Of a stretch of 64,000 nt of DNA, positions 6,172-59,733 are shown piece by piece; position 1 is the stretch's first letter; every line of letters starts with the position of its first letter. Origin of the DNA: a virus; the IMG/VR virus record IMGVR_UViG_3300045988_098681; one strand, given 5' to 3'. Under the pieces are notes generated by a model. The model searched no databases. It was not told the origin of the DNA and worked only from the letters and a program-made list of their open reading frames with translations. The translations under genes were made by a program, and so were the position numbers.

Positions 6172-6180
6172 GGAGGTCAT

Positions 6181-43363: not shown

Positions 43364-45220
43364 TTATATTAAAATACCTGCAAAGTCATCTATATTAAAA
43401 TCTTCTTGATTTTGAGATATTGCATGGTTATTTTCTATTTTATCTGCTATCCAATTTGCATATTGGAGCGAACTCATACGGTCTTTATGTCCCATTCTAG
43501 GTTGCGAAAGCGACAACATACCATTATCCTTCCATGTTGCTGATAGGTTAATACCCTCACTAATCAACATACTAGTTTGAACATATGGGAGCAAATACAA
43601 CGCTCGTTGTTCAGATGTAAATTTAAAAGACTCTGGACTTTCATCAAATGTTTTCGTTGCTTGAAGTTCGTCCTCAAGCAACAACAAACTGCCGTTATTG
43701 AGCGATTTCCAAAGCGACTTCCACATATTAGAGTTCATTTCAGCGGTTGCTTTCATCGGTATCATACAAGGAATATATTCTGGGTCAACTGTACGTTGAC
43801 GAAGTTCGTTTAAAACACCCTCAGACAAAACTTGCATATTCGGCTCTTCACAAATACCAAATCCATGCGGATTCCAATTTTGTCTAGTTGGGTGTTTCCA
43901 TGGTGAAGAAAGCATCGTATAATAAAGATTACCCCCACCGTTAATATCAACGCACAAATATGTGCAACCTAAATCCCAATATAGTTCTCTGATTCTTTGG
44001 TGAACAGCTTGTTCATCGCCGCCACCCATAGACTCGATATATTCAAGCCTACGCTCTGTTGTTCCATCACTTTTACAAATAACCGATAAAACCTCTAAGG
44101 CACACCTGTCAGACTCTTCTTTTTTACCAACTGCATCTTCTGAAAATGCTAAGTCAACCGAAAGCACACGATATTCATTATCCCGCTTTTTTCGATTCTT
44201 CTTATCTATTCCAATATTAACTTCTTCATTTGTAGGTGGTTTCAAAGATTTGTTAAGAACTTGATTCTTTTGGAACATCTCAAGAGTATAATATGCACCA
44301 TCAGCCTCTCCAACCATCTCATTCAAATCTTCTATTCTAAACTCAAGCTCACCGCCTTGTTTACCTTTCATATAGTCAACTTTTGTTTTGAGTCCATGGT
44401 GCATAGCAACAAAGATATCTCCTGCAAAGAAGTTCCAATTTGCTAATCTGTCGTTATAGCAATTATTTACGCATTTTTTAAAAGACCTCCAAATCCAACT
44501 TGACTTAAACCATGCAGAAGTTAAATAAATTTCCTTACACTCTTCTACTAAGTCTGGATCGTTTTCATATTCTGGAAATTGTAAATATTCTGCTTGCCTT
44601 GGTTGGGACATTTTAGTGAATACAGAATCCCAAATAGATTTTTTAATAAGTCTAGCTTCTTCGGCAATAAGGCAAGAACTCCTTTCGCCGCGGCTCGAAT
44701 CCAACGCTGGCATAACTTTAATCCAACTACCGTTCCAAAAATCTACTTGAGCGCAATCTTTAGGATGTGTAATTGTTATCATTCCATCATCTTTCATTTG
44801 CTTTAAAATGGATGATAGCTTACCAATAAGCTCTTTATCTATTTTATTATCAACTATCTTATTTGCTTGGTCGATTGTAGAAGAAACAACAACAATTTGG
44901 CTATGTGGTCTAATCAAACAAATACATGTTGATGCAAGAGCCGTATCAAACGACTTACCAAGACCACGACTACAAATCATCCAAAAGAAATCAGATATGC
45001 CAATCAAAAATAATTTAATGTGTTGAAATGGTTTTAATCTAATCCTTAACCTTTCACTAGCATATATATTTAAGTTTCTACGATAAAAGGTACACCATTG
45101 TTTAGTGCGAATGTCCTTTTCTTCTTTTGTTTGCTTTTTCTCTTGTTTCCAACGGTTCCTTCTTGCTTTCTTTATAAAGTCATAATATTGGCTCTCTTGT
45201 AGTAAATCTTCTCTTGTCAT
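43364..45220 (-). CDS. terminase large subunit
   Basis: 618 aa. Walker A-like 'CSRGLGKS', Walker B-like 'SCLIAEEA', and a C-terminal nuclease-sized domain. 4-nt overlap with the upstream ORF. Confidence 0.7.
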   Translation of the reverse strand: MTREDLLQESQYYDFIKKARRNRWKQEKKQTKEEKDIRTKQWCTFYRRNLNIYASERLRIRLKPFQHIKLFLIGISDFFWMICSRGLGKSFDTALASTCICLIRPHSQIVVVSSTIDQANKIVDNKIDKELIGKLSSILKQMKDDGMITITHPKDCAQVDFWNGSWIKVMPALDSSRGERSSCLIAEEARLIKKSIWDSVFTKMSQPRQAEYLQFPEYENDPDLVEECKEIYLTSAWFKSSWIWRSFKKCVNNCYNDRLANWNFFAGDIFVAMHHGLKTKVDYMKGKQGGELEFRIEDLNEMVGEADGAYYTLEMFQKNQVLNKSLKPPTNEEVNIGIDKKNRKKRDNEYRVLSVDLAFSEDAVGKKEESDRCALEVLSVICKSDGTTERRLEYIESMGGGDEQAVHQRIRELYWDLGCTYLCVDINGGGNLYYTMLSSPWKHPTRQNWNPHGFGICEEPNMQVLSEGVLNELRQRTVDPEYIPCMIPMKATAEMNSNMWKSLWKSLNNGSLLLLEDELQATKTFDESPESFKFTSEQRALYLLPYVQTSMLISEGINLSATWKDNGMLSLSQPRMGHKDRMSSLQYANWIADKIENNHAISQNQEDFNIDDFAGILI

Positions 45221-46086
45221 TTTGAGCCACCATATTTACTATCTTCTGTAACCTCATAGTCCTTAGAGCCAATTACAAGATTTCTAACAGGTCTAAGAAC
45301 CCAATCAATCCAATATTTATGAATCCCCAAGAAGTCTTTATATAATTCTTTATCTTTATAATATTCAGCAGGCTCATTTTTCTCCATCATGTATATATCA
45401 TTTTCGATATATTTTTCAGCCTCTGTCTTATTTCTTTCTACTTCAAACTTATCAATACCAAGCTCTTTTGCAATAGTCGCTTTCGCTTTCATGTTTTGTT
45501 GAGCCTCATCGTTCTCTTTTATGCGCAACTCACACATACACAAATCGCGATATCGACTTGCTTGGTATTCTGTCAATTCTACACCTGTTGTATAGGTTAA
45601 AAAACGCCACTCTAAATAAGCAAGCTCGTCAACATTCAAATCATCGCCCCATGCCAATCGTAGTTTTCGCAGTTCTTCCTCTCGTTCTTCATCAAGAACC
45701 ACAGCAGTACGAATATCTCCAAATGAAGCATCGGTATCCGAAAATTCATTCCATTGTTTTGGCTTGCCACTAAAGTCTTTCATGCACTTTAGATATGTTT
45801 CCAACGGATTTGCACTTTTATTTGCGGTTAGTTTTTTCTTTGTTTGTCCCCATAAATGCTCAATAAATGGGATACCAATATCGGCACAAGTGAACCACAA
45901 CCCAGCTTCAACATCTTGGAATCTCTCATAGTGCCTTTGATATATCTCTTTACAACAATCCTTACAATATGGCATATAACCATGATGGTTAGGATTTTTA
46001 CTTGGGTAGAATTGCGTAACAGGCATTGTCTTTTGATGCTTCAAACAATAAGAGAACACCTTTTCATTTCTTTTCGTTACTGCCAT
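45217..46086 (-). CDS. hypothetical protein (small terminase position)
   Basis: 289-aa ORF coupled to the large terminase gene. N-terminal Cys/His cluster. Confidence 0.35.
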   Translation of the reverse strand: MAVTKRNEKVFSYCLKHQKTMPVTQFYPSKNPNHHGYMPYCKDCCKEIYQRHYERFQDVEAGLWFTCADIGIPFIEHLWGQTKKKLTANKSANPLETYLKCMKDFSGKPKQWNEFSDTDASFGDIRTAVVLDEEREEELRKLRLAWGDDLNVDELAYLEWRFLTYTTGVELTEYQASRYRDLCMCELRIKENDEAQQNMKAKATIAKELGIDKFEVERNKTEAEKYIENDIYMMEKNEPAEYYKDKELYKDFLGIHKYWIDWVLRPVRNLVIGSKDYEVTEDSKYGGSK

Positions 46087-46202
46087 TATCCGACCATCCT
46101 TTTATTCCTTTAGGGGAGGCACTAAGACCACCCCACAACAAATAGGAGGAGTTCTCCTTCAAAAAATATATTAAATTAAGTATAAATGTACTTAAGTGTA
46201 CA

Positions 46203-47432
46203 TCATAAAAAATAAATTTTTGAGTAACTCCAAAGTAATTTGCACTTTTTAGCATTCACCTTTTTACAGTGCTTTGTTGGGCTTTGAAAGTTCAATGCGT
46301 GTTGACATGGGTACAGTGCTGTCACATATCCCATATGAGTTTCCCCACTCTTATACGTATATTCAACCAAGTCCCTATGCCTTATACCCAGTACATTATC
46401 TGTCTTAGCTTTACTCTGTCTGCGCATTGGTTTTACAATCCATTCTTTAACATCACATGTATCAGGCAGTAAGCCTGTAATACAGATAGCATCATTAGAA
46501 TGTGATTTCTCAATGTTCCAATCAATACGTTTATTTGCTGTATCACCACCGTTGGTTAAGTGCAATTCGCCAAGACTAGACAATTTGTCTCTAAGCCAAT
46601 TCTTACCAATCATCACATGTTGTGCATAGTTTAGATTTTTATTGTCACTTGAACCCAATATGGAAAAGTACCAATCCATGAACTGTTCTTCTTTACCTTC
46701 TGTTTTTTGGTGACAATTCTTGCACAGTGTGATTAGATTGCCGAGTGTATTTGAACCATTTAATCTCCTTGGCTTAATGTGATGCACTTCAAGCCCACAA
46801 TCAGATTTTCCACATTCCATACATTTACAACCGTCTCTTAAGATAACTGCCCTACGTATGTTTTCGTCCAACCTGTTTGATTTTTGATACTGCCATTTGT
46901 ATGGTCTGTACCCATCAGTCAATGCTCTAATATCAATTGATACATCCTCAAGCCAATAACTTGTTATGTTTACCCATCTGTTAAGACAATTTATAACTCT
47001 AATTGTTGCTTGTCTCTTTTGCAGTATGCTTGGTGCAATTCTTCCTTTTCTTCTTGGGGAACTGCGATTGTTAAACCTTGCAGGTCTGTGCCTCTTGTGG
47101 TTTCTGTGATAACGTCTGTAACCACGCCTAACTTCCATCAAACGTTTTACATCGTTTCGCTGCTCGATTGTCCCCTTGAAAAGAACTTTGTTTTTCGTCT
47201 GGCACTTTTGAACAACAGATATCCCCACATGAAGTCCGCCATCATCAATGCCACATCGCATCTCATCCTTACAAACTTCATTGTCTAAAATTTTTTTCTT
47301 AAGCCGTATTACCATTGGATATTTACTCACAAGCACTGCACGTTTCTTGCGAATAAGAAACCATGCTTTTTGCTCTTTTGTTGGAGCCAATTGTTTTCCA
47401 TCAGCGTCTAACACAAAAGCATAATTTATCAT
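46203..47432 (-). CDS. iscB: IscB-like RNA-guided nuclease (split RuvC with HNH insertion)
   Basis: Motifs occur in IscB order: 'GKQLAPT' (PLMP-like), RuvC-I '[14 protein letters not shown]', Arg-rich helix '[22 protein letters not shown]', 'IAPSILQK', RuvC-II '[10 protein letters not shown]', HNH '[22 protein letters not shown]', RuvC-III '[10 protein letters not shown]'. Confidence 0.8.
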
Positions 47433-47745
47433 TTCTGATACCTTCCTTTCGGAGAATTTTTCTTCTTGCCAATGTCAAGCAGAGGACATGTGTTTCCCTG
47501 TTATCAGTGCAGGGCATTAGTACTGTTTCTTGGTTGGCACTCACAGAGCCTTAAACTGAAAATTACATTCAAGGGTGTGTTTTTACCTTACTGCTCAACG
47601 TAGTTCATATCTGCAACTCGTCTTTCGACAATAGCAGTCACTTAGGCTTGAAACCTACCATTAAGCCGTGTGTAAGAGGCTTGTGTGCCCACTCTTACAC
47701 ACGTTTGTCAATACACTTCTATGGTTTTGACAACTTAATGACTAG
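47433..47745 (-). ncRNA. putative IscB omega RNA (HEARO-type) region
   Basis: ~310-nt ORF-free region directly 5' of iscB. Contains an 11-bp stem (47668-47678/47692-47702), GGCTT/AAGCC (47645-47667), GTC-GAAA-GAC (47620-47629, GNRA only on the - strand), CCCTG/CAGGG, and a long-range TGCCAA/TTGGCA pairing. Confidence 0.5.
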
Positions 47746-47749
47746 TCCT

Positions 47750-48136
47750 CTATTCTACACTATCTCCCTTTTCTAAAATCTTCTTGAACTTTGTATATGC
47801 CTCAAACACATATTTACAAGAAGACGTTACGAAAAGTGCTAAAATAGCTAAATTACTAAAAATTTCCGCATACTCTTTTGGAATATTTAATCCGACATAG
47901 CTTGCAAACGCCGGAATTGTCGTAATAGCAATACATAATAATGCAAGACCAACAATAATAGTTGTAACTCTAATAACAGAGTCTAAAATTTTATTCTTGT
48001 CGAACTTTTCCATAAGCATACGAATATTGTAATAAAGCGAAAACGCCATATTGCTAGTATAAGCAACTAAAAATAAAGCTGCACCAATACCAACATAAGT
48101 TAAATTCTCAAGTACACCATCTAAAAAACTAGTCAT
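47750..48136 (-). CDS. holin-like membrane protein (3 TM)
   Basis: 128 aa with three hydrophobic helices and a charged C-terminus. Adjacent to the cell-wall hydrolases. Confidence 0.5.
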   Translation of the reverse strand: MTSFLDGVLENLTYVGIGAALFLVAYTSNMAFSLYYNIRMLMEKFDKNKILDSVIRVTTIIVGLALLCIAITTIPAFASYVGLNIPKEYAEIFSNLAILALFVTSSCKYVFEAYTKFKKILEKGDSVE

Positions 48137-48383
48137 CTAAATCCTCCTGCTTTCTTAATAATTTAGATGCGGCATCAGCAAGCACAATGCTTGTGCCTGT
48201 CATAATTACCCATCGCCCAGTCTTAAACACCTCAGTTGTAACCGTACTGTCTATTGCGTGGTCGTACCAAGACATAATAAAACTAAATATCGTGTAAATA
48301 ACTAAAAAAAGCAACACACCAACAAATGTCACTTTCCTAGTCCGCCATTTTTTCCATGGTCTATTTTTAATCCATTCTTTCAT
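48129..48383 (-). CDS. small membrane protein (2 TM; holin/antiholin position)
   Basis: 84 aa. 'VTFVGVLLFLVIYTIFSFIM' and 'WVIMTGTSIVLADA'. Confidence 0.45.
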   Translation of the reverse strand: MKEWIKNRPWKKWRTRKVTFVGVLLFLVIYTIFSFIMSWYDHAIDSTVTTEVFKTGRWVIMTGTSIVLADAASKLLRKQEDLDD

Positions 48384-48390
48384 GTTTCAC

Positions 48391-48843
48391 CTACTTTAAT
48401 GCGCTAAAAGGCATATTGATTTGCTTCCCACTCCTAGAATCCCAATGATAAAACACCTTGGAATATTTTATACAAGACCCTAAGTGCATGCCCCACTTAT
48501 AAAGTCCTGCTTCACCAACTACGCCATGTGCCTTACAAATTGAACGCCACTTTTTCGCATAACGAATAAAATCGTCTTTTGACAAGTTTGGATTACTCCA
48601 ATCTGTCGCACACCCACGAAGATGCGAAGAGGTTGCAGAGCCTCCAACTTTCTTATTATAATCCTTTGTACGATACCATGCGTTTATTTTCATTGATCTA
48701 CCAAGCCACTTTCTAAACTCTTCTAAGCAAGTAGCATGCAGAATAGCAGATGCATTAAGAATACATTGACCTGTCTGATTAACCGTATATTCATCGATTG
48801 AAAAATGTTCTGTCAACTTTGTAACTTTTACAGTTGCATCCAT
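48391..48843 (-). CDS. peptidase M15-type endolysin (zinc D-Ala-D-Ala carboxypeptidase fold)
   Basis: 'SSHLRGCATDW' (H..G.A.D) and a distal 'HLG' are characteristic of M15 peptidoglycan peptidases. Confidence 0.6.
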   Translation of the reverse strand: MDATVKVTKLTEHFSIDEYTVNQTGQCILNASAILHATCLEEFRKWLGRSMKINAWYRTKDYNKKVGGSATSSHLRGCATDWSNPNLSKDDFIRYAKKWRSICKAHGVVGEAGLYKWGMHLGSCIKYSKVFYHWDSRSGKQINMPFSALK

Positions 48844-48861
48844 TTAACCACTTCCTTTCTA

Positions 48862-49716
48862 TTATTTCCTGCGATATGTTGTAAATTTATCTGGCACATT
48901 ACCAACATATCCAAAAGCTATAGGGTGTCTTGCACACATTACAACCCTCTGTTCTTGTCCTGAGCCACGCACATTACCAAACGTTGTCACATCATCACCC
49001 AATCCGCTTTTGCCAAGGCAAGACGCATAGGCACTGGAACTTTCAGCAATCGTCAAAATTCCACTTTTCGATTTGTTATACACAATACCAACATGAGTTA
49101 TATATCTAAATGACGATTGTTCAAGACCATCTGTGTCTCCATCGCTCACATTATTGCTACGATAAAAAACCAAATCACCAATATCTGCTTTACTATATGG
49201 AATCTCACAGCCTAATTTATAAAGTTCTTGAGCCATAGATGCGGCGTTATCAAATGTTATAAATGCTCTATTTCCTGCATCATTTTCATATGTATTGTCT
49301 TTATAATATGTCTTATTATTCTTTTTAATACCATATGCAACTTGCGCGGCTAAAAACTCAAAATAATAACCCCAATCAAACACCTTTGTAATAACTGTTG
49401 TTGGGGTTGATTTAAAATCTTTAATATTTCTGCCCATCCAAATCATCTGCGCAAAAATACCACAATTCATAATATAATCACCTTTATACATACATCCATT
49501 AGTGGAACCATTGAGCGATGATACAGAATTCGGATAAGCATAGCTTTCTCTTCGGAAACTGCCGTCATAAACAAATTTTGATTTATTGTTAAGATAATCT
49601 GTTATAAGTGATTGCAAGGCATCTTTTTGTTTATTACTTAATGTTGGGATGGAGCTATTTGTATCATCTATTGGTAACTGAAATCTTAAAGTACCATCTA
49701 CTTCGTAATTTTTCAT
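48862..49716 (-). CDS. NlpC/P60-like cell-wall hydrolase candidate
   Basis: Candidate nucleophile 'NCGIFAQMIW'. 'GDLVFYRS...ITHVGIVYN' resembles the NlpC/P60 His block. Confidence 0.45.
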   Translation of the reverse strand: MKNYEVDGTLRFQLPIDDTNSSIPTLSNKQKDALQSLITDYLNNKSKFVYDGSFRRESYAYPNSVSSLNGSTNGCMYKGDYIMNCGIFAQMIWMGRNIKDFKSTPTTVITKVFDWGYYFEFLAAQVAYGIKKNNKTYYKDNTYENDAGNRAFITFDNAASMAQELYKLGCEIPYSKADIGDLVFYRSNNVSDGDTDGLEQSSFRYITHVGIVYNKSKSGILTIAESSSAYASCLGKSGLGDDVTTFGNVRGSGQEQRVVMCARHPIAFGYVGNVPDKFTTYRRK

Positions 49717-49735
49717 ATTTTCCTCCTAATAAAAT

Positions 49736-49760
49736 AACCCCACCGACCATCAGTGGGGTT
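49736..49760 (-). terminator. rho-independent terminator
   Basis: 8-bp stem AACCCCAC / GTGGGGTT. On the - strand it is followed by ATTTTATT. Confidence 0.55.
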
Positions 49761-49859
49761 AAGTTTGACCGACCATCAGTCATTCGCTATTTAATAGATA
49801 AGGTCAAAACATGCCATTCTAATCTAAATGGACTTATAGTTCCTTGCTAATCTAATTTT

Positions 49860-50099
49860 TTATTTAAAAGAAGATTTAAGATAAAAGTATCCGCAACTCT
49901 TGTTCGAGCCATCTTTGTTTTTAATCACGTTGCCATCTTTATCTTTTGCAAAGCCATCACATACATACACGTTATCGCCAAGTTTGGTTTTGCGTAATGT
50001 TGCTCCACACTTACGACAAGTTAATTGCTTTTCCTCTTTTGGCTCTAACGGTTTGAGATTTAATACCTCTCTCATGCTTTCAAAACTGTTTACTTTCAT
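49860..50099 (-). CDS. hypothetical zinc-ribbon protein
   Basis: ATG 50099 with a GGAGAG RBS. 'CRKCGATL...YVCDG'. Confidence 0.45.
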   Translation of the reverse strand: MKVNSFESMREVLNLKPLEPKEEKQLTCRKCGATLRKTKLGDNVYVCDGFAKDKDGNVIKNKDGSNKSCGYFYLKSSFK

Positions 50100-50239
50100 A
50101 CCCTTTCTCTCCTTTTGTTCTGTGTAATGCACAACTTTTTCACTTGTATTTATGCTGTTATTATGAGAAGCCCAAGCGCATTTTCGTATTGTGCATGATA
50201 GCCTTTTCGCTAAACGAATCCCTTGTACTTCGGGTTAAT

Positions 50240-50314
50240 TGGCATACCTACTACGAATCGAACATAGATATACGGTTTTGGAGACCGCTGTTTTCCCAAT
50301 TAAACTATAGGCAC
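50240..50314 (-). tRNA. tRNA-Trp: tRNA-Trp (anticodon CCA), CCA-encoded
   Basis: Cloverleaf folded by eye: acceptor GTGCCTA/TAGGTAT, D stem GTTT/AAAC, anticodon stem GCGGT/ACCGT with loop CTCCAAA, T arm CTATG-TTCGATT-CGTAG. Confidence 0.75.
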
Positions 50315-50377
50315 ATATCAGATGAGTTAAGTTTCTCTAACTCACCAAGTACGCATCCGAAAACACATACCCCAATT

Positions 50378-50740
50378 TTAAAATAATTCTTGTTCAGTTA
50401 TTCCAATATTTTCTTCTGTATATGGTAAAAACAAATGACCAAATCTACCACGCACTTCTCCATTATCTTTTGGAAATCTTAAAAAATGTTTGTAATCTGT
50501 TAATAGCTTAGGACAATTTTTTTCTACCCACTGTTTAGTTGCAGTAATACAATAATCCGAAGACGTATCTACAAAATTAAATACTACAAATACTACACAT
50601 AATTTATTTTCTTTTACCCAATCTTCATTGTCAAATGGAATTTTTAAATTGTCTTCAAACCATGTGATAAAAGGTTCATCATCAGGAAAATCTCTTTCTA
50701 AAAACCAATTATTTAATTCAAAATAAATTATATTTTCCAT
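50378..50740 (-). CDS. hypothetical protein
   Basis: 120-aa ORF between tRNA genes. Confidence 0.5.
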   Translation of the reverse strand: MENIIYFELNNWFLERDFPDDEPFITWFEDNLKIPFDNEDWVKENKLCVVFVVFNFVDTSSDYCITATKQWVEKNCPKLLTDYKHFLRFPKDNGEVRGRFGHLFLPYTEENIGITEQELF

Positions 50741-50770
50741 TACACCGTCCTAAACTTTCTATAAATTTAA

Positions 50771-50847
50771 TGGTGATGCCACCGAGGCTCGAACTCGGAC
50801 TTTTCAGCTTGAAAGGCTGATGTGTTAACCAGTTACACTATGGCACC
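50771..50847 (-). tRNA. tRNA-Glu: tRNA-Glu (anticodon UUC), CCA-encoded
   Basis: Acceptor GGTGCCA/TGGCATC, anticodon stem TCAGC/GCTGA with loop CTTTCAA, T arm CCGAG-TTCGAGC-CTCGG. Confidence 0.8.
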
Positions 50848-50925
50848 ATACGAAGAAAGTATAATAGATAATTTCTAAAATTTGTATTAAATCCCACAAT
50901 AAGAAATTATCAAACATAAAGGGAT

Positions 50926-51002
50926 TGGCGGGACATCTAGGATTCGAACCTAGAATCTTGCGGTTAACAGCCGCCTGCTCTAACCAGCTGAGCTAATGTC
51001 CC
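50926..51002 (-). tRNA. tRNA-Asn: tRNA-Asn (anticodon GUU), CCA-encoded
   Basis: Acceptor GGGACAT/ATGTCCC, D arm GCTC-AGCTGGTTA-GAGC, anticodon loop CTGTTAA, T arm CTAGG-TTCGAAT-CCTAG. Confidence 0.85.
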
Positions 51003-51300
51003 ATATGGATGCAGGTACTCGACACTCCCCTTAGCTAAATCAAAGGATTTTAGGTGGCGATAGTTCAATAACTTATTTGCCTAACATGTGCAAACAAGTT
51101 TATTCATGCTCAGCCACCTAGAACTTTCATTAAGAAAAATTGTTGGAAACGACAGGACTCGACGTTACGTTCAACTAAAAAAAGTTGATTCCTTATTCAT
51201 CGTGCTCTGTTTTGCCGAAGCTATTCCAGTTGGTATAGCACTCCAAAGGCTTAAATTCCCATGTAGCGATTTGGTACATATATGTAGTCACTTCTAGTTG
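51003..51300 (-). ncRNA. putative TnpB omega RNA (reRNA) / transposon right-end region
   Basis: ORF-free 3' flank of tnpB. Nested stems TAGGTGGC/GCCACCTA (51051-51058/51113-51120) and CTTATTTGC/GCAAACAAG (51072-51080/51090-51098). The single non-Watson-Crick pair is A-C on the + strand and G-U on the - strand. Confidence 0.4.
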
Positions 51301-52425
51301 TTAAACTACATATTTCATTAAATTGATTGCTGCGTTGTAATCACGATCTATTACGGGACCGCATTCTGGACAGACGTAGATTCTGTCGCTGAGCTTTAGG
51401 TTTGACTTAATCGTTCCGCAACAAGAACATGTTTTGGAAGAAGGGCAGAACCGATCTACCTGTACGAACTCGATCCCATTCCACTCACACTTGTATTTCA
51501 TCTGACGAACAAACTCATAAAAGCATTGTTCCTGAATTACTTTTGACAGGTGTTTATTCTTCATCATTCCAGACACATTAAGGTTCTCCATGACGACCCG
51601 ATATGGACGCATAAATACGAGTTTATGTGTTGCTTGATGAATATGATTTTGTCTTGTCATTGAAATGTGATAGGAAAGTTCTCGAATTTGTTCTTCGACT
51701 TTAAGAATATTAGCCGTCTTTTCAAAATTACCATTTTGATAATACTTACGAGAAACTTTACGTTGAAGGCGCTTCAATTTCTTTTGCTTTTTCTTCATGT
51801 TGGAAGTTTTGTTAATGTTCTTAATGACAATATTTTCATCGCCAAAAGCTACACTACAAAGCGCTTTGATTCCAAGGTCAATACCCATGGACTTATTTGT
51901 CAGCTCCAATACTTGGTTCTCACACTCAAAGCCAACTGTTAAAATCCATTTCTTATTGACATATGATATTCTTGGATTGTAAAATTTTGCTTCTTTTCCT
52001 AGTGGGACATTGTAGTTTGTCCGATATTTTACTTTACCGAGCTTTGGAATTGTTACAGATTCTTCGGTAAAGTAAGTTCCATCGTTTCTGATTGGATAAT
52101 TAGGTTTCGATTTCTTTTTACTTTTAAATTTAGGAAAACCTGCGCCACGAAAAAAGTTTGAATATGCTTTATCAAGGTCTCTTAATGTTGTTACCAAGCT
52201 CGCATTTAAAACTTCATTAAGCCAAGCATATTGTTCTTCTTTTTTCAATGGAGTGAGTTTCTTGATAAGATCAAAAGATGATAATTTCTTGCCGATGGAA
52301 GAGTATTCCACTTTTTGAATCTCTAATCCCCAATTCCAGATAAACCTACAACACCCAATGTGTTTCCACATCAATTCTTCCTGCTCCTTAGTTGGGAGCA
52401 GTCTGATCTTGTACGTTTTCATCAT
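51301..52425 (-). CDS. tnpB: TnpB (IS200/IS605-family RuvC-like RNA-guided nuclease); no tnpA nearby
   Basis: N-terminus 'YKIRLLPTKEQEELMWKHIGCCRFIWNWGL', RuvC D 'GIDLGIKALCSVA', E 'VVMENLNVSGM', zinc finger 'CSCCG..CPECG', final 'IDRDYNAAINL'. Strong AAGGAGGT RBS. Confidence 0.85.
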   Translation of the reverse strand: MMKTYKIRLLPTKEQEELMWKHIGCCRFIWNWGLEIQKVEYSSIGKKLSSFDLIKKLTPLKKEEQYAWLNEVLNASLVTTLRDLDKAYSNFFRGAGFPKFKSKKKSKPNYPIRNDGTYFTEESVTIPKLGKVKYRTNYNVPLGKEAKFYNPRISYVNKKWILTVGFECENQVLELTNKSMGIDLGIKALCSVAFGDENIVIKNINKTSNMKKKQKKLKRLQRKVSRKYYQNGNFEKTANILKVEEQIRELSYHISMTRQNHIHQATHKLVFMRPYRVVMENLNVSGMMKNKHLSKVIQEQCFYEFVRQMKYKCEWNGIEFVQVDRFCPSSKTCSCCGTIKSNLKLSDRIYVCPECGPVIDRDYNAAINLMKYVV

Positions 52426-53530
52426 TTACCTCCTTTTCTTTAAGATTTTATGAAAAGGAGAGTGGCGGGAACTTACCCCGCACATGCGTTTCTCTCTTGT
52501 TGAATATATGAGCGAGACTTTGGGAACCGTTTTTACCTATCGACATCAGCATAGTGGTATTCAACGTTATCGAGTATGCTCCCGCCTTGCCATCTTCCAA
52601 TGACTGAAAATCTCGCAGAAATCTTAAGTTATTTTACTAAGCTAAACAACTAAATAACATGTGCCATGAACCTTCGTTCTACCTTCCACAATCATCGTCA
52701 TATTCAACCAGTAAGTAGACAAGTCTGTGCCACAGGGAGCTACCCTATGACATCTTGCCTAGATGGAAACCATCAAATCTTACAAGGGGCTCTTTCTACC
52801 CTTAACTTTCACAAAGCATTCAGAATTATTTTCTTCAAATCTTCATCATTTGACATCATTTGACTTGTAAAATTACTACAGTCATTGCTTTTTGCTACTC
52901 GTACCTTGACCCTATCTTATACTTTGTCTTTCGACAATCTCACAGCAAACTTCCTTAGTGGCACTTCCGTACTTATGCCGCTTGCCACAGCGACACAGCC
53001 CTCGGATTCGGCTTACGCTTTTAACGCTTAGCTTCTATTGTGGAAGCGATAGGACAGTGTTTTTAACAAGGATTGCTTTAGCACACACCCCCAGAACCAT
53101 TCTATTCATAAGTGGCATCTTGCATCTCACAATGCAAGCCTTTGACCGTTACCAAAGCTATCGTTTTGGCTAGGCTATTCTTACCCGCAGGTGGGTAGTG
53201 TTCTCTGCACCATGCTCTTGGTCTACACAGAGTTATGGCACACATTATTTAGTTGTCTAAAAATGGCTACGGGATTGAGTACCGCCCTCAACAATAGTCG
53301 GGTCAAAGCCGACTGCGTTCACTTGTTCGCCATCCCGCAATATTTGGTTGGTATACGATTGAAACCATATACCAACCGTAAGGAAAAAAATATGAAAAAA
53401 GCGTTTTTCTTTTTTATTGTGGCGCACCAAATAAATTTTATGGATGTCCTTTTAGGAGGTAAAACACAAAAAACAGAAAGGTTGGTTTTAGGTGCGCCAC
53501 TCGAATATTTTGTTGTTTTCTCTCTTTACA
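52426..53530 (-). ncRNA. candidate large structured non-coding RNA (class unassigned)
   Basis: ~1.1 kb downstream of a perfect consensus promoter with no ORF >=60 aa on the transcribed strand. Many stems: 53419-53428/53491-53500 (10 bp), 53346-53355/53368-53377 (10 bp), 53296-53301/53309-53314, 53119-53125/53132-53138, 52958-52963/52983-52988, and GTC-GAAA-GAC at 52926-52935 (GNRA only on the - strand). Confidence 0.35.
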
Positions 53531-53536
53531 CTTTTC

Positions 53537-53565
53537 ATTATATAGAGATGCTTGCATTTTGTCAA
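53537..53565 (-). promoter_or_regulatory. perfect consensus sigma-70-type promoter (TTGACA-17-TATAAT) on the - strand
   Basis: Reverse complement reads TTGACA (53565-53560), then 17 nt, then TATAAT (53542-53537). It lies just downstream of the stop of gene 53581-54723. Confidence 0.7.
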
Positions 53566-53580
53566 GCAAAATTTCAAATT

Positions 53581-54723
53581 TTACAAATTTATTTTATAAG
53601 TACAAACATCATTGTCAAACACTTGTAAAACTTGATAAGGTTTTGTATTACATCTCAAGCTCATAGCAAACTCGTCAATGCCCGATATAGACCCATTGAC
53701 TACAATCTCTGTACCATTGTCATCTTTTATGTTCATGTGATGAATATGCCCAAAATAAATTCTATCCGGCACTTTACCAAGTAAATTAACAGAATGTAGT
53801 TTAATATTTGACAAAGAATCTTTATCCCCATGTGTCATAAAAACTAATTGGTCTTTTACCTTAAATGTGATCCAATCCTCTAACCCATTCATGCAAACTC
53901 TCACATTCGGCAACCTAAGTTCAATATGCTTAAAAATCAATCTTTCAAAATTTTCAGCAGGCATATTTGATTTCTTATCGGCATTTACTCTTGAGTGATT
54001 TCCAATAACTCCATAAACCTTGGCTTCTGGAATATATGCCTTGAGTCCATTGACAAAGTTAGCCAAAAGTTCTCCGACATTGATAACTTGTGTAATCAAA
54101 TCTTCTTCCGCAGCGATACGACTTTGTAAATGAATTGTGCCACTAATCAAATCACCTGCTAATCCGAGGTGTAATTTTTGTACCTTATGTAGTTGACAAT
54201 AATAGATTGTTTTCTTGAGCAAAGTTTCTAAACGTTCATTGGCAATATCTACATTGTACTCGTTTAGAACATTATCTATTAAAAGTCCATAGTGAAAGTC
54301 AGACAAGATAAGAACCGCCTCTACATTGGTAGAATTTGGTTCATGCACACTATTGAGTTTTAATGGCTCAATATCTTCAATCGCTTTTACCATTAAATCC
54401 TCTAGGTGTTCATATCTTGCACTTTCTCTAAGCAACTTGTTATACTCACGCTTTTGATCTTGCACTCTGCACTTCTCTTTATAAAGTTCTTGGCGCAAAG
54501 TTTCTAACCTAGCAGATTCCTCGCTTGTATATCCTTCTTCGAGCTTTTCAAGCATATACTTATATACTCGATAGCCACAATAGCGACCGCCAGCAAAAGA
54601 TTTCCTTAAAGAGTCAGGGTGAACATCTAGTTCAAGTTCATCTACCATCTCTTCCCAATCTTTATTCGTTGTTCCTTCTACTTTATCTACGAGCAAATCA
54701 AGCTCGTCTTGATAATTTCGCAT
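53581..54723 (-). CDS. calcineurin-like metallophosphoesterase (Mre11/SbcD-type nuclease candidate)
   Basis: Motifs in order: 'LILSDFHYG', 'GDLISG', 'GNHSR', 'THGD', 'GHIHH'. Confidence 0.7.
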   Translation of the reverse strand: MRNYQDELDLLVDKVEGTTNKDWEEMVDELELDVHPDSLRKSFAGGRYCGYRVYKYMLEKLEEGYTSEESARLETLRQELYKEKCRVQDQKREYNKLLRESARYEHLEDLMVKAIEDIEPLKLNSVHEPNSTNVEAVLILSDFHYGLLIDNVLNEYNVDIANERLETLLKKTIYYCQLHKVQKLHLGLAGDLISGTIHLQSRIAAEEDLITQVINVGELLANFVNGLKAYIPEAKVYGVIGNHSRVNADKKSNMPAENFERLIFKHIELRLPNVRVCMNGLEDWITFKVKDQLVFMTHGDKDSLSNIKLHSVNLLGKVPDRIYFGHIHHMNIKDDNGTEIVVNGSISGIDEFAMSLRCNTKPYQVLQVFDNDVCTYKINL

Positions 54724-54914
54724 TAGTTCACCTGTTCCGAGATAAACGAAACTTGCATACCTTCCATATCTCTAAGCATTTCTTCAACGCTAACAACAAT
54801 CGGTTCTTCGTCTTTCTTATCATAAACCTCTACAACAAAGTCACCGTTATCATTTCTTGTTAAGTAGCCAATAACCTTGGTGGTTGTAATGCGACTATAT
54901 GTATCCTTCATCAT
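54723..54914 (-). CDS. hypothetical protein
   Basis: 63-aa ORF coupled on both sides. Confidence 0.45.
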   Translation of the reverse strand: MMKDTYSRITTTKVIGYLTRNDNGDFVVEVYDKKDEEPIVVSVEEMLRDMEGMQVSFISEQVN

Positions 54915-55285
54915 TCATCGTCCTCCTCATAATTGTCTGGTTTAAAAAGCGGGTTCCCCCATGTTTGTTCCATCATCTCACTTCTAAATTGTTGTGAAAT
55001 TAAGAATTGTGGAATATTGTGTTCAAGACGCTCACGACTCAAACTCAACTCACCATTAAGACTTACATTTGGCATATATCTTGGTTTTTTATATGGTCTG
55101 TATTTGAGCGTAAGAGTTCCAACTTTTTGCAAGCACACCTCTCTGCCCGATAATAAACATTCCCTTATCACATGAATGTAGTTTTCTATGATTTCTCTAC
55201 ATTCCTTTTGCGAATACCCAGACAATTCAGAAACTACTCGAACGATATCACCTTGTTTCATTTTAGGTACGTTGTATCCTTTCAT
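54911..55285 (-). CDS. HU/IHF-like DNA-binding protein
   Basis: 'DIVRVVSELSGYSQKECREIIENYIHVIRECLLSGREVCLQKVGTLTLKYR' follows the HU helix-helix-beta-arm pattern. Confidence 0.5.
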   Translation of the reverse strand: MKGYNVPKMKQGDIVRVVSELSGYSQKECREIIENYIHVIRECLLSGREVCLQKVGTLTLKYRPYKKPRYMPNVSLNGELSLSRERLEHNIPQFLISQQFRSEMMEQTWGNPLFKPDNYEEDDE

Positions 55286-55511
55286 TTCTAATCCTTTTAA
55301 TCCTTTCTAATCCATACCCCACGCTGAAATAACAACGTGGGGCTTTATGCAATTCCCATACTTGTATGGCGCATTGGGTAATAGCGCACCCCTACTTGGG
55401 CAAACTGCCCTTTCCAAGATATTCTATCATATAGTAACTTATGATAAAAATTGAACAAACGTTGAAATTTCAACATTCTTAATCTTGTATGTTTTCCCAT
55501 AATTTCACATT

Positions 55512-56117
55512 TTATGTGGTTTTTTGAAAAATTTTGAGCAAATTACTAGGGTTTATTGTATATAAAGTTTTCAATAAAAGCACTTTATTCTTATCTGTTT
55601 TGGCTTTAGACTTCCTGCCATTTCCATCTAAATTTACCCTTAAATGAAAAGCTCTATCTATAAGCCAACTAAACAATCCAAGATAATCTTTTGATATATA
55701 TACTCGTTTAATATCTTCTACCATATTCTCAAAATCTTCTCGTAATATTAAATCGTCCTCAATATCATCAATCGCATTTTGGTATAACCTCAATCCATAA
55801 GCCTCTATAAACGCCTCAACTTTTTTAGATTTTCGTCTGTCCTCTTTGAGTTGGTGATGGTTGTAAAAATAACACATCGGCAAAGTTGACTCATTTGAAC
55901 GTATTTTAGGTGGTTTATAGTCAAAAAGTACATTCATAGGACATTGGAGCTTGTTGTTAATTTTATCTTTTGGTATGGCATAGTTTACATAAAGCCAAAA
56001 GCGTGGATATCCATTATGTTTTACATTAAGTTCTTGTTTTATGCGCCGTATTTCTGAGTTTAGGTCGATATCGTAAGTGCGCTTTGCATTGTCGATAGCA
56101 GCCTGCATTTGTTTTAT
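55512..56117 (-). CDS. YonO/RdRP-like polymerase candidate, exon 2 (junction approximate)
   Basis: The frame is open upstream of ATG 56108. An in-frame join '..ILSVVA|IKQMQAAIDN..' is possible. Confidence 0.45.
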   Translation of the reverse strand: MKQMQAAIDNAKRTYDIDLNSEIRRIKQELNVKHNGYPRFWLYVNYAIPKDKINNKLQCPMNVLFDYKPPKIRSNESTLPMCYFYNHHQLKEDRRKSKKVEAFIEAYGLRLYQNAIDDIEDDLILREDFENMVEDIKRVYISKDYLGLFSWLIDRAFHLRVNLDGNGRKSKAKTDKNKVLLLKTLYTINPSNLLKIFQKTT

Positions 56118-56381
56118 CTCTGGCTCTTTATCCAGAGCTTCTTTAAGTTTCCTTAAAGTATCGGACTATATCTTCACCATGCACTTTCGTGTTTAGGTGT
56201 TCAGCACTCGTGGGGGGATTATTGCTAGTTCTGCTCACCCCCTAGTCTCTGAGCCTTCCTATCTACTAAATGAACCTCGATAGGTTTGGCATATGGTTAG
56301 CATATGCTTTTGCACTTAGCTTTCCACTATTCACTGAATATTTTTTACTAAATGTTTCCACTTAGCTGACCCATTTTACTA
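56118..56381 (-). ncRNA. group I self-splicing intron (ORF-less, ~264 nt; boundaries approximate)
   Basis: On the - strand: an R-like 'GGCTCAGAGACTAG' (56242-56255), an S-like 'AAGATATAGTCC' (56163-56174), then a CTTTAAG-GAAA-CTTAAAG hairpin (P9-like) and a GCTCT..AGAGC hairpin before the proposed 3' splice site. Confidence 0.7.
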
Positions 56382-58337
56382 AGCCACTACACTCAGAATA
56401 CACACATAATCATCATACTCTTTGTCTGTAAAACTATATCCATAAGTCAACGCAAGCTGCGCAAGATTACTAGACTCACCTATTGCCATTTGTGCTTTGG
56501 CAAGGTTGTTGTCTATAACGGCGTGATTGTACATGGATAAGTCATAATGATTTTTTTCTTTTGGAATGTTGTTTACAATGGTTGGATGGTTTATGTAGCA
56601 ATATTTGGCGTAGTCGGCAATGTCATGTTGATTTGTTACAAATACTTGGTCAGAATCCCAGTCGCAGCCATTTAGTCGGTCTTGGACATCTGTGTGTTTG
56701 CAATTCATTGCAATACATTGCTCCCCAATATAAAAATATTTATCTAAAATATCGCTCTTAATATTTTTAAGTCCAATAATATTCGACTTACTATTGTGCG
56801 GGCTTCTAAATCCTGCTAAATACTCGTTTGCTCCAAACCTCTTTGTGTAACATTGAATACAATCCTGCTCTTGACCAAACGTATTGTCTTTTTCTACATC
56901 TTCACCCACACTATGTAATAACATGGCATAAGGAGAGCCAACCATTACTAAGTTATCACCCTCTTGCAACACTTTACCAAACTTTAGATTTTTTACATAA
57001 CCATCAATTATTTTTTTCTTCCTGCTCCTAAAATACTCACTTCGCACAAATTCTGAATCCTGCTCGCACAATGCGACCAAAACCTCGTAGTCATTAGAAA
57101 AGTTCTCATTGTCTCTAAGGTAGTCAAGGAACACATCATTGTCACTCTTTAGTTGTTCAACATACGATTTGCTTCTTGCAAGCACACCATCCATAATTTC
57201 AACATCAAGTGTGTTTATCATTTGGTAACTCATACGTTGAACGTCACCGTATTTGCTCTTGTGTGCAGTTTTAACTATTCCAAATTGACAATCATTCTCA
57301 TGGACTTTCTTACACCAATAGTCATACGATACGTCGAATTTTAACCACTTCATGGAATTATCTGTGGTTATCATCTTGATATCTTTTACATAGTGTTCAT
57401 TGCCCCACATATCGACAACTTTTGCACTTTTGTACTCATCGCCATACCAATCCCTAAAGAACCGTTGTATGTTCGTGTGAAAAGCAGCACACTTTGTCAT
57501 ATGATGTCTTAGTAATACATACCCCTCTCCCCACTTGGGAAAAATCGAATCGTCTATCAAGGCTTGCCCATCGAACAAGGTGTTTTTTAATTCGTAGTCT
57601 TGTATTCGCTTTGCATAACAATGTTTTTTTCCATCAATGCCAATACTCACTACTTCACGCCTAAAAAAACTATCCACATCTTTTAGTATCAATATATTTT
57701 CCGGCTCAATCCTCATGCGTCCAACTATCGTGCTTGCGATGAGTGACACATATGCACTTGCTTCTACTATCGGCGCATTATGCTTTGGAATCTTTAACCC
57801 CATATAAATAAAGTCGTGGGCTTTTTTATAGAGCCTAGAACAAATAAACATAACAGAACCTTGCTTCGCCTTGCCAGCAGAACGATAAAGCATTTTATAG
57901 TGTATTGTTTCTGTTTTCTTTATATTTCCTGCTTTGTCTTTGGTATGATATTTAATATTTATTCCATGTTCGTAATATTCAATTCGTATATCTTCTTTTC
58001 GCTTCTTGACGTACTTATCTCTATTTTCGTCTACTTTATTTAGTAAAAATTCTAATCTCTTTATTTTCTCCTCATCGTCAATTTCTTTTATCTTATTTAC
58101 AATGTTGCCCCTCGTGTCCTCATAACTCTTAGCTCCCATGTCAAAATTCAAGCATATTACATCTCTAGTGAAACCGTTCTTCGACACTTTAAGTCCATTT
58201 TCTAACAAGAAGTCTAAGAAGAGGCTATTTGTCAACATGGCATTAGTATATGGCAGATAATCTCTTGCGCCAAGATTATATTCATATAGTTGTCCTGCCG
58301 AAAAGTTCTTTATTCGTACACCATATTTATTCGTCAT
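56382..58337 (-). CDS. YonO/RdRP-like two-barrel RNA polymerase candidate, exon 1
   Basis: 'GFRSPHNSKSN...(~40 aa)...LNGCDWDSDQVFV' matches the 'RSP.H...GGD.DGD' spacing of the catalytic double-psi beta-barrel in QDE-1/YonO-type polymerases. The ATG at 58337 is preferred over the GTG at 58349. Confidence 0.5.
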
Positions 58338-58338
58338 T

Positions 58339-58509
58339 TTACCACTCACCCCATTGAAATCTTACACACTCATTATAATTAAAGTATCTATATAAAAAAT
58401 CATATTCTTGTTCTTTGTATTCTCTATTTAATCGTTCCTTTTGTGATAAAATGGGATAAACATGGTGACTCATTTCTTCCCAATAATCTTCTTTATCCCT
58501 ATACTCCAT
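58339..58509 (-). CDS. small hypothetical protein (56 aa; below the track cutoff)
   Basis: GGAGGAG RBS and ATG 58509. Stop overlaps the start of the next gene (TAAAATG). Confidence 0.4.
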   Translation of the reverse strand: MEYRDKEDYWEEMSHHVYPILSQKERLNREYKEQEYDFLYRYFNYNECVRFQWGEW

Positions 58510-58550
58510 TACTCCTCCTTTCTTGAATGAATCAATACCTTATATTGTAT

Positions 58551-58579
58551 AGTATAAAGATTCTACCACAAAATGTCAA
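58551..58579 (-). promoter_or_regulatory. sigma-70-type promoter (TTGACA-17-TATACT) on the - strand
   Basis: Reverse complement reads TTGACA (58579-58574), then 17 nt, then TATACT (58556-58551). Divergent from the + promoter 11 nt away. Confidence 0.65.
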
Positions 58580-58589
58580 TAGAATTTGC

Positions 58590-58618
58590 TTGACTTTTAA
58601 CATAACTTATTGTATAAT
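58590..58618 (+). promoter_or_regulatory. sigma-70-type promoter (TTGACT-17-TATAAT)
   Basis: TTGACT 58590-58595, 17-nt spacer, TATAAT 58613-58618, then an AGAGG RBS and ATG 58637. Confidence 0.65.
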
Positions 58619-58636
58619 AAACCAAGAGGTGTTAAA

Positions 58637-59617
58637 ATGAAAGAATTTGAGTTAAAAGAAAAGATAAAAAACCTTGAACGAAAATTGGAACAATATGAGT
58701 TAGAATCGATTGGAATCTATGCGCCAAAACATGCGCTCAATACAAGATCTGAATTTGGAGAGGCAATTAGACAAAACCTAAAAGAACAACGCGAGTGCAG
58801 CAAAGTTAAAAATTTGTTCACCACAACAGGCACAATTCAAAGTATCCTTGTGCAAAACTTTAACTTTGAGTGTTCTGAAATCATAAGAAAGCTCAACGGC
58901 TACAACTTGCAAAGCGCAAAGTTAAAAATTCAAGAAAAAGCGAATAATATGCTAGATGTATGTGACGAATATGGCATTTTAGTGAGCAATCACAATTTAT
59001 TCAACCTCAAAATTGAACAAGCCGAACTTGAAAACGACTACTTGTTATTCCAAGCAGAAGAAAGATATAGAAAGCAAGAACAAGCTCGCAAAATAGCCGA
59101 ACAACGCAAAGCCGACAAAGAATGGTTCGATAGGTTGGTGGAATTAGAGAAAAGAATCCAAGAAAGTATATCTAATGGCGATATTGAGGAAACTGAACGA
59201 TTGCAAGAAGAAGCCAATCAAACACGCCATTTACTCAAAGAAAAGAAAGCAGGTTGGGTATATATCATCAGCAACGAAGATATGCACAATGGATACTATA
59301 AAGTTGGAACAACGCGAAGAATCTCGCCCCTTGTAAGAATAGACGAACTTTCAGACGCAAGCCATGCTTTCAAGTTTAGGATTCATGCGCTCATATATTC
59401 TGAAGATTGTTTTGACTTAGAATCAAGATTGCACAGAAGATTGACAAACTATCGAGTAAACAAAGAAAATCTACATAAAGAATTCTTTGAAATTGACCTT
59501 GAAGAATTACAAATTATCTTGCTTGATGAATTTGGTATTGATGTAGAAATGAATGAAAATATTTACGAGGACGATGAAAAACTCAATGCGCTCTACTCAT
59601 TTATTTACGATAAATAG
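58637..59617 (+). CDS. DUF4041-like coiled-coil + T5orf172 (GIY-YIG superfamily) domain protein
   Basis: C-terminal 'GWVYIISNEDMHNGYYKVGTTRRISPLVRIDEL...ESRLHRRLTNYRVNKENLHKEFFEI' matches the T5orf172/MUG113 pattern. Long N-terminal coiled coil. Confidence 0.7.
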   Translation: MKEFELKEKIKNLERKLEQYELESIGIYAPKHALNTRSEFGEAIRQNLKEQRECSKVKNLFTTTGTIQSILVQNFNFECSEIIRKLNGYNLQSAKLKIQEKANNMLDVCDEYGILVSNHNLFNLKIEQAELENDYLLFQAEERYRKQEQARKIAEQRKADKEWFDRLVELEKRIQESISNGDIEETERLQEEANQTRHLLKEKKAGWVYIISNEDMHNGYYKVGTTRRISPLVRIDELSDASHAFKFRIHALIYSEDCFDLESRLHRRLTNYRVNKENLHKEFFEIDLEELQIILLDEFGIDVEMNENIYEDDEKLNALYSFIYDK

Positions 59618-59705
59618 TCAATACGAAAATTAAGATAAAAAGATTTTAAGATAGACTTGTATAGCCACTCGGTAAATTACTCGACAAACACATAAAAAAC
59701 GATAA

Positions 59706-59728
59706 GGGGGCAAATAACCCCCTTTTTT
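59706..59728. terminator. bidirectional rho-independent terminator
   Basis: GGGGG-caaataa-CCCCC followed by TTTTTT. Lies between convergent genes. Confidence 0.65.
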
Positions 59729-59733
59729 CTATT

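Follow-up and report, generated by a model that had tools for sequence, protein, structure and literature searches.

The results reported here concern a 64,000-nucleotide stretch of viral DNA (IMG/VR record IMGVR_UViG_3300045988_098681; hereafter the window, meaning this stretch at its full length) and indicate that its positions 46159-47749, on the minus strand, very probably represent a non-autonomous ISC/OMEGA mobile element of the IS200/IS605-IS607 superfamily, which encodes an IscB nuclease, of the type ancestral to Cas9, together with its omega RNA and would act by RNA-guided cutting of its own empty site. By analogy with characterized systems, its most likely function would be to cut the uninterrupted site, formed by the 3' end of a putative holin gene followed by AGGAG, in sibling phages or after excision, and in this way to favor its own inheritance. 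The element is a further clear example of the known IscB system and not a new type; what it adds is a natural pair of occupied and empty alleles, an RGGAG rule that holds across many insertion sites, junctions resembling those of IS607, and the presence of a second OMEGA element, encoding TnpB, in the phage. The features on which the argument rests are as follows.

46159-47749, minus strand: the whole inserted IscB/omega-RNA element, 1591 bp, delimited by comparison with the empty-site contig L084.
46203-47432, minus strand: the iscB gene, 409 amino acids (aa), from the open reading frame (ORF) listing, Pfam, and alignment to solved IscBs.
47433-47749, minus strand: the predicted omega-RNA scaffold, 317 nt, starting AGGACUAG, from covariation in an alignment of 32 relatives.
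47454-47629, minus strand: the part of the scaffold matching HEARO (Rfam RF02033; 35.2 bits, E=4.8e-5).
47667-47703, minus strand: a perfect 12-bp hairpin (47667-47678 with 47692-47703).
46159-46202, minus strand: an A/T-rich 3' tail, with the hairpin TGTAC-ACTTAA-GTACA (46187-46202) right after the stop codon, from comparison with relatives.
47750-47765, minus strand: the flank expected to supply the guide, AGATAGTGTAGAATAG, from the variable flank across sites and the analogy with IscB.
46154-46158, minus strand: AGGAG, located 3' of the target as read on the iscB strand and inferred to be the target-adjacent motif (TAM), from the empty site and relatives.

Comparison with related phages supports the IscB/omega-RNA unit being a discrete insertion at one exact site. 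An empty site between the putative holin and small-terminase genes, which a preliminary description of this DNA had named as something to look for, was found in exact form in a phage 97-99% identical to that of the window. This phage is a 99.6-kb IMG/VR contig (L084) that was recovered by pattern search and matches window positions 44898-60922 at 97-98.6% identity. Its empty site reads ...GTAGAATAG/AGGAGAATTCC without interruption (in longer form ...GGGAGATATTGTAGAATAG/AGGAGAATTCCTCC..., with the slash marking the junction here and below), and the window junctions read ...GGGAGATAGTGTAGAATAG/AGGACTAGTC...[element]...TTTTTTGA/AGGAGAACTCCTCC. The empty site is the two flanks joined with nothing added; a target-site duplication was therefore rejected, as none is present there, and no terminal inverted repeats were found in the element. 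Because AGGA stands at both junctions, the ends of the element are ambiguous by 4 nt. A human-faecal phage record (L001; MT839428) that matches both flanks and lacks ~1.6 kb gave the first approximate boundaries, and in a second occupied allele (L142) the omega RNA is identical and the protein differs by two amino acids. Elements in relatives are 1588-1632 bp long, with tails of similar length, mostly 44-58 nt, and a hairpin after the stop codon in all of them.

As judged by alignment, the 409-aa ORF is a full-length IscB, a nuclease with both RuvC and HNH domains and with all catalytic residues intact. Pfam assigns RRXRR to residues 6-184 (E=1e-45) and HNH to residues 204-244 (E=4e-11), well outside what chance would give. 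The closest solved structure is HfmIscB (PDB 9k2z), at 68% identity over 406 of 409 residues with one gap (E=1.5e-194); TbaIscB, OgeuIscB, and other IscBs rank after it at 1e-21 to 1e-29 (2e-22 for OgeuIscB), and the entries for IsrB and Cas9 match weakly, so that the profile and structure comparison against IscB and IsrB suggested in the preliminary description came out strongly for the former. That description had also listed the full IscB motif order in this ORF, and every motif it named is present and aligns with OgeuIscB and HfmIscB. The domain order runs from a PLMP-like N-terminus through a split RuvC with an Arg-rich bridge helix and an HNH domain to the C-terminal domain. LAPT at residue 15 occupies the PLMP position (GKQLAPT aligns with GKPLMPT), and the split RuvC keeps Asp63 (GIDDG, 61-65), Glu162 (WLEDV, 160), and His311/Asp314 (HSNDA, 311). 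The HNH domain lies between RuvC-II and RuvC-III, with His217/His218 (EVHHIK, 215), Asn232, and a CxxC...CxxC zinc site formed by Cys204/207/237/240 (CMEC 204, CKNCH 237). D63, E162, H217, H311, and D314 align with catalytic positions of OgeuIscB and HfmIscB, and their roles were assigned through OgeuIscB D61, E193, and H340/D343, which we take to be the catalytic residues of that protein. Residues 320-409 align without gaps to the HfmIscB C-terminus, the position of the TAM-interacting domain. Within its 1591 bp the element holds an RNA scaffold and the 409-aa protein, with none of the type II Cas9 features (CRISPR array, tracrRNA, REC lobe). The bridge helix ends in RFNNR at residues 119-123, and an FNNR motif has been described (PMC13180657).

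The region directly 5' of the ORF, already described as omega-RNA-like, appears to be a structured RNA of the omega-RNA type in the expected place and under strong structural selection, a conclusion supported by the HEARO match (E=4.8e-5) and by covariation among relatives. The consensus structure computed with RNAalifold from the 32 aligned relatives contains 63 pairs, 39 of which show compensatory changes. The proportion of cells paired is 97.7%, compared with 86% after shuffling and 32-44% with slid partners, and none of 500 shuffles reached the observed value on any measure. The window RNA itself has a minimum free energy of -86.5 kcal/mol (z = -2.1), and an nhmmer profile of the scaffold finds a single copy in the window. 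The region is conserved at similar length in all 118 relatives found on viral contigs. The scaffold RNA begins AGGACUA, and its final hairpin (CUCCGAAAGGAAGG) contains the ribosome-binding site of iscB. The individual structures proposed previously largely held: the perfect stem is present, at 12 bp instead of the 11 bp first given; two GAAA-capped hairpins, where one GNRA-capped hairpin had been given, are invariant across relatives; and long-range pairing is backed by covariation. The 12-bp hairpin sits in a clade-specific domain of ~70 nt, 5' of the HEARO-like core, and this domain is enclosed by a long-range stem (~47733-47748 with ~47646-47661) of 14 pairs, 7 of them changed on both sides.

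The same relatives point to the source of the guide. AGGAC is the exact point at which similarity among them sets in, and further 5' the DNA is unrelated from one insertion site to another. The viral loci show 33 different flanks, and strict clustering that includes the genome loci leaves 26-27 independent sites. The guide of IscB is known to lie outside the transposon end that abuts the omega RNA (Meers et al., PMC10055086), and the variable 5' flank behaves as would be expected of a guide position. In the window this flank is AGATAGTGTAGAATAG, comprising the final codons and TAG stop of the 128-aa putative holin gene, with a guide length of 16 nt assumed by analogy with other IscBs. The earlier proposal that the guide comes from the flank next to the holin gene fits the 26-33 independent sites and their unrelated 5' flanks.

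At the other end of the element, the tail runs directly into RGGAG at each of the 26-27 independent sites. The base after RGGAG, which the search left free, is A or G at 27/27 sites. In 22/26 sites, an ORF with 50 or more codons has its start 11-19 nt past RGGAG, which implies that RGGAG is the Shine-Dalgarno sequence of the next gene, and a co-oriented ORF ends no more than 15 nt upstream in 14/26 sites. In the window, AGGAG is not a ribosome-binding site; it forms the 5' arm of a small hairpin (46144-46158) that resembles a terminator and follows the holin gene. The motif belongs to the target, since both empty sites that could be examined keep it, as TAG/AGGAG for the window element and TTAA/GGGAG for the HfmIscB element. 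A search of the 64-kb window for near-matches to the guide plus AGGAG returned only the occupied site, which reads AGGAC, indicating that insertion replaces the fifth base of the motif and everything after it.

From these many sites, and from six copies in one genome, it is clear that the family moves. The relatives found comprise the 118 on viral contigs, whose proteins are 65-82% identical, and 44 relatives in genomes, in assemblies of Lachnospiraceae, Erysipelotrichaceae, Gemella, Selenomonas, and Veillonella. One metagenome-assembled genome (MAG) of Eubacteriales, JBNMKO01, has six copies or fragments at different sites (L089, L095, L111, L115, L123, and L125), each preceding AGGAGG or GGGAGA and a start codon, which indicates recent proliferation. 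Two phage records (MT835474 and MT835533) contain a mini-element produced by internal deletion (L002 3880-4395 and L003 3885-4393), which keeps the full omega RNA, ~22 N-terminal codons out of frame with the last ~15 codons, and the tail, and which ends before AAGGAGG-ATG. As the same deletion occurs at two different sites, this non-autonomous, RNA-only mini-element has itself moved. No empty site was found in viral contigs for the element of L004.

The structurally solved member of the clade is also phage-borne. The native gene of HfmIscB lies on a 121-kb viral contig (L068), where one residue differs, corresponding to an engineered His-to-Ala change, and its element spans 5670-7274 (1605 bp). 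The precise empty site of this element (GGATGAGTTCAATTAA/GGGAGAGT) was found in 72 viral contigs (L160-L231), at least 30 of which match both flanks, with up to 99.8% identity in those inspected; cleavable empty sites would thus seem to be common in nature for this element. More distant relatives occur in cultured Staphylococcus Herelleviridae (PMC13346280), as proteins 52-60% identical that the records call HNH endonuclease or hypothetical, in some cases adding a HEARO feature. Staphylococcus phage JDF86 has an equal layout, with TAA/AGGACTTAC... at one junction and ...TTTTAAGA/AGGAGG-ATG at the other. In the Silviavirus Staphylococcus phage CIFT_MFB_MRSA28 (L087 2690-2780), an IscB homologue lacks the usual stop and tail and runs into the AAAGGAG-ATG of the next gene, with the annotated coding sequence (1489-2778) overlapping the following one; this may be an immobilised copy.

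Taken together, these data suggest a plausible sequence of events. Transcription would probably occur by read-through from the lysis genes, an assumption made because no promoter was predicted on the minus strand, and the final ~16 nt of the holin gene (AGATAGTGTAGAATAG) would form the 5' end of the transcript, ahead of the scaffold. IscB with this RNA would recognize DNA with AGGAG immediately after AGATAGTGTAGAATAG, a combination expected only where the element is absent, as the occupied site has the 16-mer and then AGGAC. The target could be met after excision or in a co-infecting sibling phage without the element, and a cut empty site repaired from an occupied copy would have the element copied in or restored. 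New sites would be reached through a transposase supplied in trans. In most cases RGGAG serves the next gene as its ribosome-binding site, so the element would land between genes, co-oriented with them, and without breaking genes. GstIscB is reported to cleave the donor joint and to share its TAM with the transposase (PMC10055086), and co-infecting phages have been listed as possible targets of 'non-restorative homing' (PMC13565253). Our literature search found no paper demonstrating non-restorative homing for IscB, and RNA-guided homing into co-infecting phages is inferred here by analogy.

Several observations weigh against this reading. The first concerns the RNA: the covariance-model scan proposed in the preliminary description gave a HEARO match over the full model length (1-211), but at 35.2 bits compared with the Rfam gathering score of 83, and HEARO is not listed in a gathering-threshold Rfam scan of the whole window. 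The low score can be attributed to the clade-specific ~70-nt domain, which lies 5' of the part modelled by HEARO; the window scaffold is related to HEARO RNA, yet it is missed by the curated model. Secondly, a scan for sigma-70-like promoters found none on the minus strand upstream of the RNA, and the terminator-like match in the scan is the AGGAG hairpin. Thirdly, no Y1 (HUH) transposase or resolvase domain was found among the 35 window ORFs of 100-241 aa, in agreement with the absence of TnpA noted previously, and the 1591-bp element has no room for a transposase; given that none was found in the window at the sizes scanned, the element is regarded as non-autonomous. A search for serine-recombinase catalytic motifs in ~2.1 Mb of DNA found one IS607 TnpA, in L029, and it lies outside the IscB element. 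Lastly, perfectly matching empty sites are abundant for the HfmIscB element, and homing, if real, has not swept.

The empty alleles of the window site add two further difficulties. At 47760, which is guide position 11 and lies 11 nt from the junction, both occupied alleles (the window and L142) have G in a Ser codon, and all four empty-type alleles (L084, L001, L085, and L135) have T in an Ile codon, so that none of these four is a perfectly matching empty target for the window element. The T could reflect lineage history or escape from cutting. In addition, three of the empty alleles (L001 2773-2782, L085 ~329-338, and L135 ~3077-3086, equivalent to window 47750/46158) carry a 10-nt tandem duplication (TAGAATAGAG twice) at the junction between target and TAM, compared with a single copy in L084. 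A scar of IscB cutting and fill-in was considered for this duplication, but its 8 nt of target and 2 nt of motif misfit a cut 3 nt from the TAM. Slippage is equally likely, given the local near-repeat TAGAA TAGAG, and the candidates are slippage, a repair scar, or a resistance allele. A metagenome scan with a 19-nt pattern gave 30 matches, 28 of them by chance; the relevant two were L142 (occupied) and L135 (empty, with the duplication).

How the element reaches new sites is a separate matter. The element has traits of the IS200/IS605 (ISC) group, namely no terminal inverted repeats, no target-site duplication, and a fixed short adjacent motif, but these are also common to IS607. It is possible, though in our view doubtful, that an IS607-type serine recombinase moves the element, by a double-stranded circle and crossover at a GG core, rather than an IS200/IS605 Y1 (HUH) transposase; such a mechanism would be compatible with the role of the RNA-guided nuclease. 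IS607 inserts at or downstream of GG and ends in GG, and the TAMs of IS607 TnpB are AGGAG or GAGGG, whereas the targets of IS605 are AT-rich (PMC13565253). The element fits the IS607 rules when read on the iscB strand: both junctions are AGG/A, giving GG at the flank/element and element/flank joints, and every site has the G-rich target RGGAG(R). IS607-type genes are also close by, in the form of a TnpB with a RAGATH-18 RNA 3.4 kb away in the same phage and, in L029, a TnpA with a tnpB-like ORF after it, 4 kb away from the IscB element and in the opposite orientation. The latter TnpA (L029 1-1643, minus strand, on a 272-kb viral contig) has 211 aa, a MerR-like N-terminus, and the serine motif YCRVSTTKQ. 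Furthermore, the end of the 5' flank resembles the end of the tail across ~27 independent sites (L004-L129), with a mean shared suffix of 1.89 nt versus 0.86 (P<0.001) and suffixes of at least 4 nt at five sites versus 0.66 expected (P=0.0004), as with TTTTAAGA at both ends in L017 and TTTTAAAA at both in L041. A recombinase favoring junction-like targets would yield such matches, and the likeness possibly reflects target choice by a site-specific recombinase, but few sites contribute to it, and over 16 nt the effect is weak (6.8 versus 6.2 matches, P=0.015). No serine recombinase was found inside any of ~120 elements or in the window, whose ORFs gave no Resolvase match, and Meers et al. (PMC10055086) found iscB rarely with Y1 TnpA and never with serine resolvases. 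The target motif, G-rich on the iscB strand, is CTCCY on the other strand, and read there it fits the IS605 scheme, with insertion 3' of CTCCY and the other end finishing in GTCCT. The tail hairpin follows the stop codon, and nothing similar was found at the opposite end of the element.

A more far-reaching proposal, which we consider unlikely as a whole, is that the clade is not an IS605-type passenger at all and is mobilised at RGGAG in an IS607-like manner (GG core, serine recombinase) or by other means, with co-infection driving its spread and with the T-for-G change and the 10-nt duplication representing resistance alleles. If it were true, RGGAG being a Shine-Dalgarno sequence would make nearly every gene start in Firmicute phages a permissible and harmless landing site, and, once inserted, the element would be carried through phage populations by co-infection, acting as a natural RNA-guided gene drive.

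A further alternative is that the gene has been domesticated as an immobile phage weapon or accessory, kept for cutting competing phages or host DNA and not for self-propagation. The intact catalytic residues, the location of the gene in a conserved late operon whose neighboring genes share its orientation, and the 52-60% identical genes in cultured Staphylococcus Herelleviridae, annotated only as HNH endonuclease or HEARO, would all be consistent with this. It is nevertheless highly improbable in light of the presence or absence of the element at one exact site between phages 97-99% identical, the occurrence of its type at more than 26 different sites, six of them in one MAG, and the deletion derivative that retains the RNA and the ends at two sites. 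Moreover, it is the local flank that occupies the guide position in every case, which leaves the element's own empty site as the sole predictable target. The remaining possibility, an HNH homing endonuclease of the ordinary, protein-guided kind or an HNH helper of terminase packaging with incidental upstream structures, agrees with the 'HNH endonuclease' label that PHROGs gives the matching families and with the adjoining packaging module, but is effectively refuted, as the preliminary description had held for the homing endonuclease, by the RRXRR match (1e-45), the full RuvC-I/II/III, bridge helix, and PLMP, the 68% identity to HfmIscB, which was solved as an IscB-omega RNA complex, the strong structural selection on the upstream RNA, and the near-identical phage without the gene, which implies that it is not needed for packaging.

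With the element read as a probable RNA-guided, empty-site-cutting IscB system, its relationship to known systems can be defined more closely. HfmIscB belongs to the same clade and shares its length and domain order, a scaffold starting AGGACTAA, a similar tail, and a GGGAG flank; it differs in its insertion site, hence its guide, and in its phage. The deposited chain has the catalytic (first) His mutated to Ala, whereas the window protein keeps it. The solved HfmIscB structure already represents the phage-borne clade of the window. OgeuIscB and GstIscB, which Altae-Tran and colleagues are said to have described in 2021 as IS200/IS605-borne IscB-omega RNA systems, share the domain architecture, the catalytic residues, the omega RNA directly upstream, and the guide outside the transposon end. 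Unlike them, the window element resides in a phage; compared with OgeuIscB its protein is ~90 aa shorter and its RNA is longer, with the extra ~70-nt 5' domain outside the HEARO model. The inferred TAM is G-rich RGGAG, in contrast to the reported AT-rich TTCAT of GstIscB (PMC10055086) and NWRRNA of OgeuIscB (PMC12660989). The IscB nuclease targets the donor joint, and its element is usually without tnpA (Meers 2023, PMC10055086). Relative to the HNH/IscB ORF, the window RNA is placed as HEARO RNA is, on the same strand, and it matches the full model, but the loop of its first hairpin has 4 nt versus 46 in the model, and the 5' domain is added in its clade. IS607 TnpB with RAGATH-18 is likewise a transposon-borne RNA-guided nuclease with a flank-derived guide and a target-side motif, AGGAG or GAGGG; unlike IscB, it has RuvC only, its RNA lies at the 3' end of the gene, and its TAM is 5'. 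Finally, free-standing homing endonucleases of the T4 Seg/Mob type (reviewed in PMC13565253) are also intergenic nuclease genes present or absent between close phages, expected to cut the allele without the gene and to be copied in during co-infection. In the window, recognition would be by guide RNA and a 5-nt motif and not by protein contacts, and because insertion separates the target from the motif, self-protection would not rely on sequence differences in the neighboring gene.

These findings have implications for how the natural role of IscB can be studied. The nuclease is well characterised, but the natural role of IscB-omega RNA has so far been tested only in bacterial chromosomes and plasmids. 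The window provides a clean viral case, with occupied and empty alleles in 97-99% identical phages, a guide and motif that can be inferred, and a clade member, HfmIscB, whose structure is solved. RNA-guided homing between phages therefore becomes directly testable, and the 52-60% identical relatives in cultured Staphylococcus phages make co-infection experiments feasible. The coincidence of the motif with a ribosome-binding site offers a simple explanation for how such elements could populate tightly packed phage genomes without damage, and its G-rich nature links the clade to IS607-like target rules and not to IS605-like ones. The data also bear on annotation, as such genes carry 'HNH endonuclease' or 'hypothetical' in phage records and PHROGs.

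The element resides in a gut Firmicute phage of ~100 kb, with lysis genes on one side of it and packaging genes on the other. The window encodes portal, large terminase, and M15 endolysin proteins, and the large terminase is 42% identical to those of ~100-kb Enterocloster phages. The element lies between the stop codon (47750) of a 128-aa membrane-protein gene and a 289-aa gene preceding the large terminase, which is the position previously given; neither the 128-aa nor the 289-aa protein matched a named family, and the names 'holin' and 'small terminase' are positional guesses.

The second OMEGA element (51189-52425, minus strand) lies within ~50851-52642 and encodes a 374-aa TnpB with HTH_OrfB_IS605, OrfB_IS605, and Cas12f1-like TNB domains. 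A RAGATH-18 RNA 3' of the gene (51189-51249; 63 bits, above the Rfam threshold) identifies it as IS607-type. L084 has ~0.5 kb of different sequence in this region. Set against L084 and 61 relatives, the region proved to be rearranged and in part intron-like, with intron-like sequence upstream in some relatives. Adjoining the point where the window and L084 diverge is a full-length ROOL RNA (RF03087; 52649-53256, minus strand, 269.5 bits), close to a tRNA cluster. The window also contains two group I introns above the Rfam threshold (56141-56390, minus strand, and 4817-5114, plus strand; 77 and 73.5 bits) and a T5orf172/MUG113-domain protein (58610-59617), which together with IscB and TnpB mark this phage as rich in selfish elements. 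The tRNA clusters themselves differ, with Trp, Glu, and Asn in the window (50240-51002, minus strand) versus Tyr(ata), Ile(tat), and Glu in L084 (8624-8882). L084 8373-8482 resembles a long tRNA-like gene, of which the window keeps only the 3' end (TCGAGTCCTG.CGTTTCCA), beside the TnpB element.

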